64,000 bases of DNA from the NCBI GenBank assembly GCA_016432465.1, contig CP066690.1, positions 683,666 to 747,665 of the forward strand, written 5' to 3'. The stretch comes from Candidatus Sungiibacteriota bacterium. GTDB lineage: Bacteria > Patescibacteriota > Minisyncoccia > Sungbacterales > HO2-52-23. The number at the start of each line of letters is the position of its first letter. Positions within the stretch are counted from its first letter, which is position 1. Shown in pieces: positions 6,334 to 64,000 of this stretch. The notes below the pieces were generated by a model. That model searched no databases. It had not been told where the DNA came from and was given only the letters and a program-made list of their open reading frames with translations. Made by a program: the position numbers and the translations under genes.

Positions 6334-6492
6334 GGTATTTAAGCCTCGTTTTGCGGGGCTTTTGATTTTTAGGAAAATTTGCTTTAATAGCTTTATGGAG
6401 TCGCAGGAAATCAGGAGAAAGTTTTTAATATTTTTTTCCGCCTCCACCAAGGGCGGATCCGCCTCTGGCGGAGAAGACAACAAAGATAACCC

Positions 6493-37297: not shown

Positions 37298-37474
37298 ATG
37301 GATGATCACCATCAAAATAAATGTATGGCTTGTTCTTGTCCTTGCGACATGCATAAAGAGCATACCCACCACGAAGAGGATCACAATATGGACCACGAAG
37401 AAGGCCACGAGAAAGGAGGGTGTATGGCTTGTTCTTGTCCTTGCGACGAGCACAAAGAGCATAACCACGAATAG
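37298..37474 (+). CDS. Cys/His-rich metal-binding peptide (58 aa) with a duplicated CMACSCPCD motif. Metallothionein-like
   Basis: Hand translation MDDHHQNKCMACSCPCDMHKEHTHHEEDHNMDHEEGHEKGGCMACSCPCDEHKEHNHE. Below the ORF-track cutoff. Confidence 0.55.
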   Translation: MDDHHQNKCMACSCPCDMHKEHTHHEEDHNMDHEEGHEKGGCMACSCPCDEHKEHNHE

Positions 37475-45503: not shown

Positions 45504-45820
45504 AAATACAAATCCTACATAATAAATCATGTAATTTTTGGTTGATTGCCAAAAAAGAACTCGAAGAAATCCTCAAAGAAAAAGGAATTAGCGTTCCGAT
45601 TGAAGAGGTTTTAATATCTAATGATGAAGAAGCGGTCCAGTATCACTTTGCCGGCTCGCCGCAGATTATGATTAACGGAAAAGATATTGATCCTATGGCC
45701 GAGAAAATTACCAATTTTCACGAATCCGGCTGTCGTTTTTATCTTTGGAAAGATAAAGCGTACGAATATCCTCCGCGGGAGATGGTGGAGGAAGCAATAA
45801 AAACATCCCAACATACTTGA
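45500..45820 (+). CDS. hypothetical small protein, possibly thioredoxin-like fold
   Basis: ORF only, with weak resemblance. Confidence 0.3.
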   Translation: MKIQILHNKSCNFWLIAKKELEEILKEKGISVPIEEVLISNDEEAVQYHFAGSPQIMINGKDIDPMAEKITNFHESGCRFYLWKDKAYEYPPREMVEEAIKTSQHT

Positions 45821-46367
45821 GAATGTCAGGGTGTTGTGTGGAAGAAATATAAGAGATGTCACGGGAAGTGATATCTCGCAATCCCGTACCGTGTCGCCGA
45901 AGGCGACTCTGGTACCGGGATAAAAGGTGTCATGGGGGGTGGTTGCAAAGAAAAAGGCCCGTGTGACAGGCCTTGCGCGTTAGGAGGATTTAGGTTTCCA
46001 GAGAGGACAGCGAGTTACGGCGAGAGCCACGTTGTCTTCAACACAGACTTGGTAGAGCGCTTGAGCGATGCGACAGTTGTCTGGTTGGCCAGGCTTCAAA
46101 TTACCGCAGTTTAAGCAGAGACATTCGGATCGACGCAGTGATTCAGTGGTCGGGTTTATCCAAACATCATGACCATAGTGCGTTTCCTGCCTCGGCTGTT
46201 CTTTCATTGGAAACCTCCCTGTAGATCGGTTTTGGTTTAAAGATAACAGAGGGGGTATTGAATTGCAAGGCCCGCATGACATTTTCTATAATCCGACTAG
46301 CTTGAAAGGCTTATAACTGAAAATGTGGCTTAAAATATAGAAAATCCGTGCGTGACAGTATTTAAAA

Positions 46368-46431
46368 AGTAAAGGTGTCACATGACGCAGACCAGATACT
46401 CTTCTCTAATTCGCGCGAATAAGCGAATAGT
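46368..46431 (+). repeat. exact 64-bp direct repeat, copy 1 (agtaaaggtgtcacatgacgcagaccagatactcttctctaattcgcgcgaataagcgaatag)
   Basis: Identical to 46970-47033. Confidence 0.8.
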
Positions 46432-46456
46432 GTAAAAGAAATATAAAAGAGATGTC

Positions 46457-46960
46457 ATGGGGCATGAGGATATGAAATACTTAACTGGACAACAAGAAAA
46501 AGAAGCGATTCGATGGATGAATAAAGCGGCAGAAGTTGCCAAAAAGGCTTTATGCCTGAAGGCAAAATGTGGAAGCGTAATTGTAAATGACGGAGAAATT
46601 ATCGGAGAAGGTTATAACGCACCGCCATTAGATAGGGAAGAAAATCGGATGTGCGATAAAGAAGTTGGTGTGGGTAAGGATAAATATGATCGAACATGCT
46701 GTATGCATGCTGAATGGCGAGCGATAATGGATGCGTTGAAAAGAAGCCCAGAAAAGTTGGAAAGATCAAAGTTGTATTTCACGAGAGTAGATGAAAACGG
46801 TCAGATTAAGAAATCAGGGAAGCCATATTGTACGACATGTAGTCGAATGGCGCTTGATTCAGAAATAGAGAAATTTGTTTTATGGCACGAAGATGGCATC
46901 TGCGAATATCCGACTGACGAATACGATAGATTATCTTATCAATATAATCCCGTGGGTTAG
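46457..46960 (+). CDS. cytidine/deoxycytidylate deaminase-family protein (dCMP deaminase/ComEB-like)
   Basis: CMHAE zinc motif, PYCTTC (PCxxC) and GYNAPP. AT-richer than the flanks. Confidence 0.7.
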   Translation: MGHEDMKYLTGQQEKEAIRWMNKAAEVAKKALCLKAKCGSVIVNDGEIIGEGYNAPPLDREENRMCDKEVGVGKDKYDRTCCMHAEWRAIMDALKRSPEKLERSKLYFTRVDENGQIKKSGKPYCTTCSRMALDSEIEKFVLWHEDGICEYPTDEYDRLSYQYNPVG

Positions 46961-46969
46961 GTAATAAGC

Positions 46970-47033
46970 AGTAAAGGTGTCACATGACGCAGACCAGATA
47001 CTCTTCTCTAATTCGCGCGAATAAGCGAATAGG
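46970..47033 (+). repeat. exact 64-bp direct repeat, copy 2
   Basis: Identical to 46368-46431. Confidence 0.8.
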
Positions 47034-47072
47034 GAATAGGCGAATAGTGGGAAAAATGTATAAAAAGAGGGT

Positions 47073-47552
47073 ATGTCCAATAAAAATCAGATCTCCAAAG
47101 AAAAACTTCGTTATTCCAAAATTACGCCCTATATTTATATTGGGACGAATATGCTGCAGTATTCCCATTTTGAGCGTCTGAAAAAACTTGGTATTTCGGT
47201 GGATATTGACTTGGAGGCGGGACATATAGAAAAAATCCCCATGCGGGGTTTGGATACATTTTTATGGCTTCCCACCAAAGACGGTCATGCGCCAACGCAT
47301 AATCAAATGGCCGCAGGTGTTGCCTTTTTAGACCAGATGGTAAAACACAAGAAAAAGGTATATGTTCACTGCAAAAACGGCCATGGACGCGCGCCAACAT
47401 TGGTGATTGCTTATCTTGCGGCACGGGGTATGATGTCAAAGGCCGCGTACGAATTTGTCAAAAAAAGACGGCCCGTGGTACATTTGAATAAAGAACAAAT
47501 GTCTGCAGTTGAGAAATTTGCGCGTTTATACAAAAATCACGATTCAAAATGA
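47073..47552 (+). CDS. dual-specificity protein phosphatase (CX5R family)
   Basis: VHCKNGHGRAP catalytic loop. Confidence 0.7.
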   Translation: MSNKNQISKEKLRYSKITPYIYIGTNMLQYSHFERLKKLGISVDIDLEAGHIEKIPMRGLDTFLWLPTKDGHAPTHNQMAAGVAFLDQMVKHKKKVYVHCKNGHGRAPTLVIAYLAARGMMSKAAYEFVKKRRPVVHLNKEQMSAVEKFARLYKNHDSK

Positions 47553-61157: not shown

Positions 61158-62351
61158 ATGACAAGAGATGTAAGAACATGGATTGAGATAAATCAAAGAT
61201 CGCTCCACCACAATGTGGAGCAATTTTTGAAGTTGATCCCAAAGAAGACTTGTCTTATGGCGGTAGTAAAATCTAACGCTTATGGTCACGGTCTCGTACA
61301 AGTTGCAAAATCTTTGCTTGCCCTCCGTAGCTTTAGCGAAGGAGGGTGGTTCGGAGTGGATTCCATTGTTGAGGGTCTGCGGCTTCGCAAAGAAGGCGTT
61401 AAAAATCCAATTTTTGTTCTGGGCGCCACACTTCCCTCACGCCTTGAGGAAGCAGCCAAAGAAAACATAATCATTACTGTTTCCAATTTTGAGATTCTAA
61501 AAGAGTTAAACAGAATAAAAAAACCTCCGGTCTTTCACGTAAAAATGGACACCGGCATGCATCGTCAGGGCTTTTTATCTACTGATATTCCCAAGGTTTT
61601 AAAATTATTGAAATCGTATCGTTTAAGGCCTCAAGGTATTTACACCCATTTTGCCGCAGCCAAAGATGCTGCCTATCCAACTTATACGTTGGAACAACTT
61701 AAAAAGTTTAATAGAGTGGTTTCCGATTTTAGAAAGGCCGGATTTTCCGCCAAAGGCGGATCCCCGTCTTCGCCCGGCTACGGACGGGCAGGCGCCTCGG
61801 GCGGAAAGAATTTAATACGGCATGCCGCGGCCAGCGGCGGTGCTCTTCTTTTCCCGGAGGCACATTTAGATATGGTGCGGATCGGCATGGGTTTGTACGG
61901 CTATTGGCCGTCGCCAGAAGCACAAATTGCAAAGCGCAATGCGCCGATCACCCTAAGGCCGGTATTGACGTGGAAAACAGTTGTGAGCGAGACCAAGGAG
62001 ATACCGCGGGACTCGTTTGTGGGCTATGATCTTACAGAACGAGTACCTCAAGATACAAAAATTGCCGTCCTACCGGTTGGGTATTGGCACGGTTACGATA
62101 GAGGCCTTTCGGGCCTAAGTGATGTATTGGTACGCGGCAGGAGGGTTAGGGTGCTTGGTCGTGTCAGTATGGATATGATAGTGGTTGACGTGACAAAAGT
62201 TTCTAAAGTTAAGGCGGGCGACGAGGTTACGCTTGTTGGACGAAGCGGTAAAGAGGTAATCTGGGCGGACGAACTTGCACTTAAAATCGGCACAAGTCAG
62301 TATGAATTTTTAACTCGTATTAACCCCTTGATTAAAAGATTTATAGTATGA
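61158..62351 (+). CDS. alr: alanine racemase with a low-complexity Gly/Ser/Ala insertion
   Basis: PLP-Lys motif AVVKSNAYGHG and the C-terminal beta domain. Confidence 0.85.
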   Translation: MTRDVRTWIEINQRSLHHNVEQFLKLIPKKTCLMAVVKSNAYGHGLVQVAKSLLALRSFSEGGWFGVDSIVEGLRLRKEGVKNPIFVLGATLPSRLEEAAKENIIITVSNFEILKELNRIKKPPVFHVKMDTGMHRQGFLSTDIPKVLKLLKSYRLRPQGIYTHFAAAKDAAYPTYTLEQLKKFNRVVSDFRKAGFSAKGGSPSSPGYGRAGASGGKNLIRHAAASGGALLFPEAHLDMVRIGMGLYGYWPSPEAQIAKRNAPITLRPVLTWKTVVSETKEIPRDSFVGYDLTERVPQDTKIAVLPVGYWHGYDRGLSGLSDVLVRGRRVRVLGRVSMDMIVVDVTKVSKVKAGDEVTLVGRSGKEVIWADELALKIGTSQYEFLTRINPLIKRFIV

Positions 62352-63181
62352 ACACCAGCCGTATTGTTTATACATCCAAAGAGACTAAGGGCCCGGGGAT
62401 TTTATCAAAAAAAGCGCCGAAGATAGCTGGAGTCTCTGTGCTTTTTATACTGCTGGTCAGCAGTCTTTTTTATTTAGCGCGGTTGCCCAATTGGCAGGTT
62501 GCTAACTTTAGTTTCTCCGGCCTGAAAACGCTTGATCAAAATATGCTGCAGAAAAAGGTTATGAAAATACTTGAGGGTAACTATGCGCTTATTATTCCAA
62601 AAAGATCTTTCTTTTTCGTTAATTCTGATAAATTATCTAAGGCAGTTTTAAATGATTTCCCCAACATTCAGTCCGTTTCCGTCACTAAAAAATTTCCAGA
62701 TTCCGTTAAAATTGCGGTTGAGGAACGTGAGCTTTGGGGGATTTTTTGCGCTAAAGCGGTCAAAAAAGACGTTGCGGCGCAATGCGTTTACGTTGACAAA
62801 ACCGGTTTTGCCTACGAGCAGGCGCCGGATTCTGCAGGATTTCTTATAACCAGAATAAACACTGAAGGATTTTCTCCGGAAGTGCCGTCCCAAATTCTTG
62901 AGCCGCCCCTTACAGAACGGATGCTGTTTTTAGCCGAAGAACTTAGGAAAAACTTGGGCTTGGAAGTTATAGGATATGAACTTTCTAAAAAAGTACCGCG
63001 CGAAATTTGGGTTGTGACCAGCGAAGGTTTTAAAATTTACTTTAATAAAGATGATGATTGGGTTAATGCTTTTAGGGTCTTAAAAACAGTTTTGGATGAA
63101 GAAATAAAAGATAAACGGCCGCAACTGGATTATATTGATCTTAGGTTTGGAAATAAAGTGTTTTACAAGCTACTGCCATAA
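62348..63181 (+). CDS. ftsQ: cell division protein FtsQ/DivIB (POTRA domain)
   Basis: N-terminal TM segment. POTRA and FtsQ beta-domain pattern. Confidence 0.6.
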   Translation: MNTSRIVYTSKETKGPGILSKKAPKIAGVSVLFILLVSSLFYLARLPNWQVANFSFSGLKTLDQNMLQKKVMKILEGNYALIIPKRSFFFVNSDKLSKAVLNDFPNIQSVSVTKKFPDSVKIAVEERELWGIFCAKAVKKDVAAQCVYVDKTGFAYEQAPDSAGFLITRINTEGFSPEVPSQILEPPLTERMLFLAEELRKNLGLEVIGYELSKKVPREIWVVTSEGFKIYFNKDDDWVNAFRVLKTVLDEEIKDKRPQLDYIDLRFGNKVFYKLLP

Positions 63182-63227
63182 AACTTAACTCTTGGTGGAA
63201 GATAAACATGGTGTATAAAAATGTTTA

Positions 63228-63254
63228 GGGTTCCCATTGCTGGGAACCCTTTGG
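63228..63254 (+). terminator. rho-independent terminator after ftsQ
   Basis: GGGTTCCCA-ttgc-TGGGAACCC followed by TTTGG. Confidence 0.5.
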
Positions 63255-64000
63255 TACTGTGATGACCCATCCCTAACGGACGGGAGCTTACCTTACACGA
63301 AGCCGGACACTCCTTCTACTCCTTTCTGCCCGTTTTATGTACGGGCGGGCCGTATGGAGTGGGCGCCGTTAGACATATGGGGCGGGGAGGTGCCAGCAGT
63401 AGCCCCGGCCTGGATCACGAACAAACGTATGGCTCGAGGACTCCTTACTGGGCCTTGCCCGCCCCCCCAGGAGTGGTGTTGCCCGCCCCCAAAATAGTGT
63501 GGCAGGCCACCCTCCCCCAACGGAGCGGCGGTACGGCGGGCTCAAACTGCCATTCCCCGCCGTTATACCGCTGCCCCTCCCGCAAGGTTCCCACGCGGTC
63601 GCCAGTTAAGAGCGATTTTCAGCCTTGTGCTGGGTGGCCTCTCGTAAGGTAGGCCCACTGCCCAGCGGCCTAGCGCGGGGGAACCTTGTTAAAGGAATTA
63701 TGTTAAATGGGCTTTCCCTGACTACTACTACCCCGTCGGGCAGCAGCTCAAGGAGGACGCGCCGTCATGGCCGCTTTAGCCCCCATACCCCGAAGAGACG
63801 GTTACCTCGGCCGAGGTCCTCTCCTGCTGCCCCATAGATCGGGGGCTCGGGATACTTCGAACCCGGCCAACCACTGAACTGGCGCCAGCTCAATGGTTGG
63901 GCTTGCAAACGCCAGTTCTGGTGAAGAAAGCTGGCGTACCGAGCCTGGTTCCCGCCCTGCATGCAATCAGAGGCAGGGAAGGGACTCGGGTAGGTTGAGC
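63255..64000. ncRNA. large GC-rich (~62%) structured non-coding region of unknown class. It continues beyond the window end
   Basis: No credible ORF in six frames. Many GC-rich helices, UUCG and GNRA-type capped hairpins, long-range complementarity (CAAGGTTCCCACGCG / CGCGGGGGAACCTTG) and a 34-nt palindrome. Confidence 0.45.

Follow-up and report, generated by a model that had tools for sequence, protein, structure and literature searches.

A direct repeat around a deaminase gene of a Candidatus Sungiibacteriota genome carries a site conserved across the Patescibacteria and is probably a duplicated operator module

Patescibacteria (CPR) have tiny genomes and few regulators and, to our knowledge, very little is known about their transcriptional regulation. 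In a 64-kb stretch of a Candidatus Sungiibacteriota genome, hereafter the window (the whole of the DNA that was analysed), a single deaminase gene lies between two identical, co-oriented copies of a long sequence, each of which ends shortly before a start codon. The question raised by this locus is whether the repeat is the trace of a mobile or excisable cassette or a regulatory sequence that has come to stand before two genes.

The repeat and the genes around it

The features of the locus are given below by position in the window and by strand. Two comparison genomes are referred to by handle: L011, the closest relative found (deaminase 86 % identical), and L213, from the same sample series (phosphatase 81 % identical).

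45821..47072, no strand: 1252-nt block that is absent in L213 between the DUF2703 gene and the phosphatase gene
45980..46207, minus strand: gene for a small Cys-rich protein of 75 aa, with the ribosome-binding site GGGAGG and a terminator-like hairpin after the stop codon; divergent from the deaminase gene
46263..46292, plus strand: sigma-70-like promoter match, TTGCAA-18-TATAAT, 10/12, upstream of repeat copy 1
46368..46430, plus strand: repeat copy 1 (68 nt at 97 % from 46363), upstream of the deaminase gene
46399..46430, plus strand: 32-nt near-palindromic site CTCTTCTCTAATTCGCGCGAATAAGCGAATAG, copy 1; putative ArsR-family operator with one mismatch to the family consensus
46442..46447, plus strand: −10-like TATAAA box, 11 nt after site 1 and 9 nt before the ATG at 46457; conserved with L011
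46457..46960, plus strand: gene for a CDA-fold zinc deaminase of 167 aa (162 aa from the ATG at 46472), PF00383, of a Patescibacteria-wide family
46970..47032, plus strand: repeat copy 2 (68 nt at 97 % from 46965), 10 nt past the deaminase stop codon and upstream of the phosphatase gene
47001..47032, plus strand: second copy of the 32-nt near-palindromic site
47033..47047, plus strand: additional arm unit GGAATAGGCGAATAG, in copy 2 only, which sets GCGAATAG 11 nt before TATAAA, the spacing seen in copy 1
47059..47064, plus strand: −10-like TATAAA box, 8 nt before the phosphatase ATG at 47073
47073..47552, plus strand: gene for a dual-specificity (Cys-based) phosphatase, the first of a run of phosphatase, DUF3105 and TrxR-like genes

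The repeat is an exact direct repeat of 63 nt, AGTAAAGGTGTCACATGACGCAGACCAGATACTCTTCTCTAATTCGCGCGAATAAGCGAATAG, with both copies on the plus strand and 0 mismatches (repeat finder and mismatch-tolerant search). It is the longest exact repeat of the window, no third copy was found in the 64 kb at ≤3 mismatches, and the number of matches expected by chance is 0 (100 shuffles). The original prediction had described identical 64-mers; the exact direct repeat is confirmed but is one base shorter, position 64 being T in copy 1 (46431) and G in copy 2 (47033). With 2 mismatches, the repeat covers 68 nt at 97 % identity (46363-46430 and 46965-47032). The copies end 26 nt before the ATG of the deaminase gene and 40 nt before that of the dual-specificity phosphatase gene, so that each does lie immediately 5' of a gene start, as had been claimed, and each is followed by a −10-like TATAAA box. 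The additional 15-nt unit of copy 2 directly follows the exact part, and the layout common to both copies is GCGAATAG, 11 nt, TATAAA, 8-9 nt and ATG. This auxiliary unit was also found downstream of a site in another genome (L087).

The repeat is bipartite. Its 5' 31 nt are lineage-specific, a 26-mer taken from this part having 0 matches in 185,579 species-representative genomes, and its 3' 32 nt are a member of a family of near-palindromes. This division bears on the age of the arrangement, which had been called recent on the strength of the perfect identity. That argument holds for the 5' 31 nt only, where it is weak evidence, because the 32-nt site is kept identical by constraint across class-level lineages in any case.

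Shine-Dalgarno motifs are rare in this genome (4 of 58 genes) and a TATAAT-like box is often found just before the ATG, so leaderless or short-leader transcripts are likely; a start of this kind may be used at the TATAAA box in front of the deaminase gene (46442..46447). If the sigma-70-like promoter at 46263-46292 is used, copy 1 would sit in a 5' UTR of ~160 nt. No Rfam match was obtained at the repeats, either for the whole window at gathering thresholds or for 45780-47120 at E≤10, and no tRNA or tmRNA was found there. The predicted RNA folds of the 63-mer and of the two upstream regions were not distinctive (z = −0.7 to −2.2).

The gene between the copies encodes, as predicted, a CDA-fold deaminase with the zinc/catalytic motifs CMHAE and PYCTTC. 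Its translation matches PF00383 (44.7 bits, cut-off 25, E=1.3e-11), and residues H79, A80, E81, P118, C120 and C123 are invariant in 32 homologs. An AlphaFold (AF2) model has a pLDDT of 80.7, with a low-confidence insert at residues 63-77, and the top 64 matches listed at E≤1e-3 in a comparison with the PDB are almost all CDA-fold deaminases. The best structural matches are dCMP deaminases (cyanophage S-TIM5, 4p9c; S. mutans, 2hvw; T4, 1vq2; and human), but these are weak, with TM of ~0.5-0.56 and 22-26 % identity. The window deaminase has the CDA fold and the HAE and PCxxC zinc motifs in common with 4p9c, 2hvw and 1vq2, but differs from them in its low identity, in the insert and in equivalog scores that are far too low (21.7 against 219 bits for ComEB, TIGR02571; 21 against 150 bits for TadA, NF008113); a PDB search by sequence returned phage and bacterial dCMP deaminases at E~1e-4 only. 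The modelled fold is thus best described as dCMP-deaminase-like, with dCMP as only a candidate substrate. The suggestion that the gene might derive from a phage dCMP deaminase is ruled out by its distribution. Homologs number in the hundreds, have ~162 aa and share 70-86 % identity, and all named ones come from Patescibacteria/Paceibacterota MAGs, which makes the deaminase a conserved Patescibacteria gene and not a recent phage import. Its reported AT-richness proved mild, with a GC content of 40.3 % (GC3 0.35) against 45.2 % for the window. The exact protein, at either 167 or 162 aa, had no record in the assembly index.

Copy 2 is followed by the dual-specificity phosphatase gene that had been predicted there (DSPc, PF00782: 65.1 bits, cut-off 33.5, 7e-18), with HCKNGHGR as the HCx5R catalytic loop. 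In the window it is followed by DUF3105 and then the thioredoxin-reductase-like gene; an identical phosphatase is annotated in a Candidatus Sungiibacteriota MAG. On the other side of the deaminase gene, the small Cys-rich protein is one of a conserved family, for which there are 486 cluster representatives at E≤1e-3, and has no Pfam match; a 100-aa version of this ORF has no exact-protein record.

A family of near-palindromic sites in the Patescibacteria

The 3' part of the repeat recurs in many other genomes. A 27-mer, CTCTAATTCGCGCGAATAAGCGAATAG, had 108 exact matches in metagenome contigs and a 22-mer, ATTCGCGCGAATAAGCGAATAG, had 87 in species-representative genomes. Nearly all records bearing the site are labelled as Patescibacteria (Paceibacteria, Lipton-, Kaiser-, Wolfe-, Nomura-, Zambryski-, Uhr-, Doudna-, Brenner-, Sungii- and Peribacteria, and others), with one 22-mer contig labelled Gammaproteobacteria. 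The unit is 32 nt long, with the consensus CTATTCTCTAATTCGCGCGAATAAGCGAATAG and an invariant 12-nt core, ATTCGCGCGAAT, which is a perfect palindrome; the arms pair at 8 of 10 positions around this core and the flanks diverge at the borders. A fully palindromic 32-nt variant exists, CTATTCGCTTATTCGCGCGAATAAGCGAATAG. Two stem mismatches are retained, in the asymmetric form of the arms, at ~75 % of sites, and this speaks against selection for a hairpin. The window copies are one position off the family consensus and are the only two in the 64 kb, with no weaker copies even at ≤8 mismatches. On this density a DNA uptake sequence, which would be expected roughly once per kb on both strands, was rejected.

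Sites with an exact 22-27-mer core were found in 167 distinct, unrelated contexts, in which genes were called crudely as longest ORFs. Although the genomes are mostly coding, 110 of the 167 contexts are intergenic. Genes next to a site share its direction in 44 contexts versus 12 (binomial p=2e-5) and, at loci with multiple sites, successive genes each have a site 25-70 nt before the start codon; imperfect copies, with 1-4 mismatches, are clustered at the same loci. The genes downstream of sites are diverse, including ArsR, HAD phosphatases, tRNA synthetases, MsrA, PGK and others. A −10-like TCTAAT inside the site, paired with ATGACG as −35, was considered as a promoter and not adopted, since it is without the conserved A at position 2.

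The dominant neighbour of the site is a gene for an ArsR-family protein of ~86 aa (PF01022), which is ~30-fold enriched and lies within 2.5 kb of the site in 31 of the 167 contexts. In 12 of these 31 the ArsR ATG lies 6-89 nt downstream of the site, and in 10 the site overlaps the ArsR stop codon, where it comes to lie upstream of the next gene. Site and gene have the same orientation in 30 of 31 pairs with a non-palindromic site, and the ArsR gene is often itself placed between two sites. The association was also seen in reverse: two ArsR homologs, P0490 and P0503, were picked from a protein search regardless of the site, and each of them (2/2) is flanked by core-containing sites, one directly upstream and one downstream. 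Mean identity among the regulators is 54 %, with a near-invariant LSFKATSKHL segment at the location of the ArsR recognition helix. The regulator sequences seen contain no cysteine and no evident metal-site motif; lack of cysteine makes a classical thiolate metal site unlikely. Together, the sequences point to an ArsR-family regulator as the putative binder of the 32-nt site. The 64-kb window itself contains no ArsR homolog.

ArsR/SmtB-family repressors (SmtB, CzrA, ArsR) have imperfect inverted-repeat operators. The present family is similar in that a small winged-helix regulator gene adjoins its putative site in other genomes, which would imply autoregulation, and in the build of the site, whose GAA/TTC-type half-sites form an inverted repeat of ~30 bp around the 12-nt palindrome core. 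The window copies stand beside a −10-like TATAAA box, as would befit such an operator; across contexts, no peak for a fixed offset between site and −10-like box was found. The family is unlike ArsR/SmtB systems in its Cys-free regulator, in the presence of sites before many unrelated genes as well as inside ORFs, and in the identity of 22-27 nt across class-level lineages. In the CIRCE/HrcA system, the operator is a 27-bp inverted repeat conserved across bacterial phyla. The two have in common a long inverted repeat that is near-unchanged over very large phylogenetic distances and stands between promoter and start codon, but they differ in sequence and in regulator family, and the genes downstream of the present site are not chaperones. 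Literature on the motif, Patescibacteria repeats, ArsR and uptake sequences yielded no description of this palindrome family or of such a regulon; TIGR-Tas systems, which surfaced there, are unrelated in architecture. The family appears to be new and, by analogy, may work like an autoregulated ArsR/SmtB operator and recall CIRCE/HrcA in its conservation across lineages. Its putative role as an ArsR operator is supported by the architecture and by the gene association elsewhere.

About a third of the site contexts (57) fall inside crude ORFs, many of which are real genes: MiaA (~10 contexts, at the same position), NifS (3), a wHTH protein (5), UvrC, Tgt, a Mur-ligase-like protein and HsdS. An intra-ORF site is always read in one of three stop-free frames, giving YSLIRANKRI, LFAYSRELEN or IRLFARIR. 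Compared with homologs without the site, an equal length of sequence is replaced in MiaA and NifS; the site adds ~10 residues in UvrC and ~8 in Tgt, and HsdS also has extra residues relative to its homologs. For the MiaA set, DNA identity of the flanks is 46-54 % around a 22-mer that is identical by selection of the set, and the same qualification applies to the MiaA and ArsR-stop sets taken together, with flanks at 27-54 %. The pattern of the MiaA set indicates DNA-level constraint or repeated conversion. A simple operator model leaves the ORF-internal sites unexplained, since most of them have no gene start nearby.

History of the locus

The position of the deaminase gene varies among Patescibacteria. 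In other members of the group it is usually found directly 3' of secA, with a gap of 3-12 nt; secA is absent from the 64-kb window. In L011 it stands alone, after a hicA gene, and a promoter-like motif, GGGA(G/A)AAAATATAAAAAGTGC, is directly repeated on either side of it (28 nt, 89 % identity). The downstream copy of this motif has its positional homolog in the 5' part of the window 63-mer.

In L213 the DUF2703 stop codon and the phosphatase ATG are 4 nt apart, and in another genome, L214, a ROK gene is followed after 6 nt by the phosphatase gene; in both, the phosphatase gene is tightly coupled to the preceding gene and the site is absent. The 1252 nt at 45821-47072 are therefore a block specific to this lineage, by which an older operon was split. 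Within it lie both repeat copies with the deaminase gene between them, the small Cys-rich gene and the intergenic region, and its borders are gene ends, not repeats. The original prediction had the deaminase inserted into, or duplicated with, a promoter module. The copies do have the look of a promoter or regulatory module, but they are not the borders of what was inserted. Exact identity over 31 nt to the left of the site exceeds that of most site pairs in other genomes, which share 25-36 nt in total, and this argues for a local duplication or for a conversion tract seeded on the site. Local duplication as such is an ordinary kind of event. Excision of the deaminase gene by recombination between the repeats, which had also been proposed, is plausible.

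An operator module and its alternatives

With a probability of roughly 60 %, the repeat is a duplicated operator/promoter module that places the deaminase gene and the phosphatase operon under one regulator, and is not the scar of a mobile element. Each copy of the module would consist of the 31-nt lineage-specific part and the 32-bp near-palindromic DNA site, and the latter would be bound by a small, Cys-free winged-helix regulator of the ArsR/SmtB family. The inverted core ATTCGCGCGAAT and the repeated GCGAAT(A/G)R arms would permit binding by a dimer or a dimer of dimers. As the centre of site 1 is ~40 nt upstream of the presumed transcription start, the bound regulator would cover the −35 region and might either repress or activate in a class II manner. 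The deaminase would in this way be co-regulated with the phosphatase-DUF3105-thioredoxin-reductase-like genes. The two copies may be the product of a local duplication, or of gene conversion that started from the 32-bp site, within the 1.25-kb lineage-specific block that split the older DUF2703-phosphatase operon, and copy 2 would then serve as a separate regulated promoter for the phosphatase genes, which had been severed from that operon. Conservation of a 64-bit site across class-level lineages is unusual for an ordinary operator and counts against an operator model.

One alternative is that the 32-nt palindrome is a recombination or mobility site (attC-, pdif- or REP/MITE-like), that the deaminase is an excisable or movable cassette, and that sites have spread by insertion, including in-frame within genes. 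Single genes between two co-oriented sites, as in integron attC cassettes and Acinetobacter pdif modules, which sometimes form arrays, are found in the window and in L201, L021, L215 and L217, but there is no enrichment of integrase or Xer genes, the 32-nt site stands upstream of −10-like boxes, the genes have their own promoters and no sign of excision was seen. An attC site is moreover 57-141 nt long, with an R''-L''/L'-R' organization and extrahelical bases, and the conserved unit of the present site is 27-32 nt. Recombinases and transposases are missing both from the neighbour families ranked by context count, where ArsR and HAD dominate, and, for recombinases, from the Pfam families listed for downstream genes. 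The neighbourhood of the deaminase gene differs among close relatives and the window has a 1.25-kb block relative to L213, as movement would predict, but the borders of that block are at gene ends and not at sites. The additional residues in UvrC, Tgt and HsdS likewise suggest insertion, against which stand the equal-length substitutions in MiaA and NifS and the lack of a target-site duplication (k=2-6) at any left boundary tested. Identical 22-27-mers amid unrelated flanks are compatible with spread, yet the 22-mer had 0 matches in viral contigs and the window holds 2 copies in 64 kb without degenerate ones. REP/BIME and Rickettsia palindromic elements are also short dispersed palindromes, some translated in-frame in conserved genes; the present site differs in its low copy number and in having no RAYT-type gene among its enriched neighbours, and its sequence is common to many class-level lineages, whereas REP-type repeats are species-specific. 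A REP/MITE-type dispersed repeat was rejected on the missing target-site duplication and on copy number at ≤8 mismatches. A mobility site is on this evidence unlikely. A more far-reaching form of the idea is that the site family is a recombinogenic or self-propagating module, which is copied to new positions, in-frame ones in UvrC, Tgt, NifS and MiaA among them, and which moves or rewires single-gene units such as this deaminase across the Patescibacteria, with the ArsR-like protein as partner in a minimal mobile 'regulator plus site' system; this we regard as distinctly unlikely.

It is improbable that the site acts as RNA, folding into a hairpin in a 5' UTR or at the 3' terminus of the upstream transcript (a terminator, stabiliser or processing signal), of which the repeat represents two copies. 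The palindromic site is often exactly at the preceding stop codon, its internal TAA serving as the stop codon in 12 contexts, and its orientation is biased with transcription, but no T-tract beyond TT follows it and the majority form conserves two stem mismatches. Use of the sigma-70-like promoter would place copy 1 in a 5' UTR, where an RNA element might act; against this, the window copies fold unremarkably and without an Rfam match, and the site is strongly associated with the gene of a DNA-binding regulator. An assembly artefact, in which the deaminase segment was threaded in through k-mers common in the community, is very improbable, despite the behaviour of Logan contigs at the locus. 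These are 100 % identical to the window (one 99.97 %), and neither copy is spanned by a short-read contig: all four independent contigs with the phosphatase gene (4/4) begin at 47009, inside copy 2, and upstream contigs end at 45869-45915, before copy 1. Contig breaks are expected anyway at a repeat longer than k=31. The 32-mer is common to many co-occurring Patescibacteria genomes and the assembly index lacks the exact deaminase protein, as an artefact would have it, but exact identity runs 31 nt past the ubiquitous site into sequence with 0 matches elsewhere, so the deaminase segment must be truly joined to lineage-specific sequence on both sides. The intervening gene is also intact, and its proximal promoter and downstream motif are homologous to those of L011.

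The wider significance lies in a 32-bp site that is identical across many class-level lineages, marks gene starts and travels with one small ArsR-family regulator. Its conservation at the DNA level inside essential genes is an odd property of the family that deserves follow-up. The local duplication in this Sungiibacteriota genome may exemplify the way in which a gene that an insertion has separated from its operon comes under regulation again. If the pairing of regulator and site is real, it may be the most widely conserved regulon of the Patescibacteria and would offer a testable protein-DNA pair.

Repeats and gene content along the window

Several repeated elements were found in the window in addition to the 63-nt exact direct repeat that precedes both the deaminase and the phosphatase genes.

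Repeats, motifs and small ORFs (coordinates within the window unless a locus is named)
6443-6472 and 61746-61765; 1354-1373 in L011: palindromic motif GCGGATCCGCCTCTGGCGGA
1335-1365 and 61315-61345: inverted pair, 31 nt, 94 %
37322-37369 and 37421-37468: direct repeat, 48 nt, 92 % identity, spacing 99 nt, intergenic, upstream of ORF 37498
45836-45875 and 45921-45940: GAAATATAAGAGATGTCACGGG and ATAAAAGGTGTCATGGGG, additional occurrences of the promoter-like motif, in the convergent gap 3' of DUF2703
46382-46435 (repeat copy 1) and 46984-47181 (repeat copy 2): small ORF starting at an ATG inside the repeat, predicted by translation of the sequence

The GCGGATCCGCCTCTGGCGGA palindrome was common to the window and L011, the closest relative by deaminase sequence, and was not found in the 225 other loci examined, so that it looks like a lineage-specific repeat; the 31-nt inverted pair may be related to it. 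Metagenome (Logan) contigs from three runs ended at 45869-45871, within the first of the extra copies of the promoter-like motif, which is the motif that brackets the deaminase in L011. A further repeat at a different place in the genome, or strain variation, could account for these ends.

Thiol-redox genes were abundant (AhpC/TSA in 3, thioredoxin-like in 3 and pyridine nucleotide-disulphide oxidoreductase in 2), and glutaredoxin-like and DUF2703 genes adjoin the repeat/deaminase locus. At the start of the window, a repeat search detected three tRNA-like 3' halves at a spacing of ~72 nt (264-485). Within this region ARAGORN called only a tRNA-Ile at 264-335 and Rfam added 417-480 at 36 bits; the middle unit (~340-411) was called by neither. 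GC content rose from ~0.45 to 0.547 at 63001-64000, a segment for which Rfam reported no rRNA or other family.

The 32-nt site in other genomes

In one genome group the 32-nt site, the near-palindrome forming the 3' half of the repeat, is enclosed in a longer repeated unit, with TATACCCCCGCCCCGGGTTTGTCCAAAYAGGGGATTCCGCTATT before the site and a stretch beginning with TTGTCCAAAAGACGAACGGCC after it, followed by a hairpin. The longer unit was present at L019 (three sites), L033, L036, L054, L090, L096, L102, L105, L109 and L116, and resembles a small transcribed unit. Candidate PD-(D/E)XK-like genes, labelled by eye from a sequence motif without a database match, often lie near these loci.

One contig carrying the 22-mer core of the site, L152 (CAZQSS010000006.1), belongs by its label to an uncultured Gammaproteobacteria MAG and may be mis-binned; all other contigs with the 22-mer are from Patescibacteria.

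The small ORF and gene starts

The predicted small ORF crosses the palindrome in the stop-free frame of the latter, and its product would be MTQTRYSSLIRANKRIV* from copy 1 and 65 aa long from copy 2. An AGTAAA box lies 8 nt upstream of its ATG. Among all gene starts in the window, a Shine-Dalgarno-like motif was detected in only 4 of 58 long ORFs, and a TAnn(A/T)(A/T) box 6-10 nt upstream of the start codon in 15 of 58 (e.g. 9106, 46457 and 47073). These two counts suggest that leaderless or short-leader mRNAs are frequent among the genes of the window.
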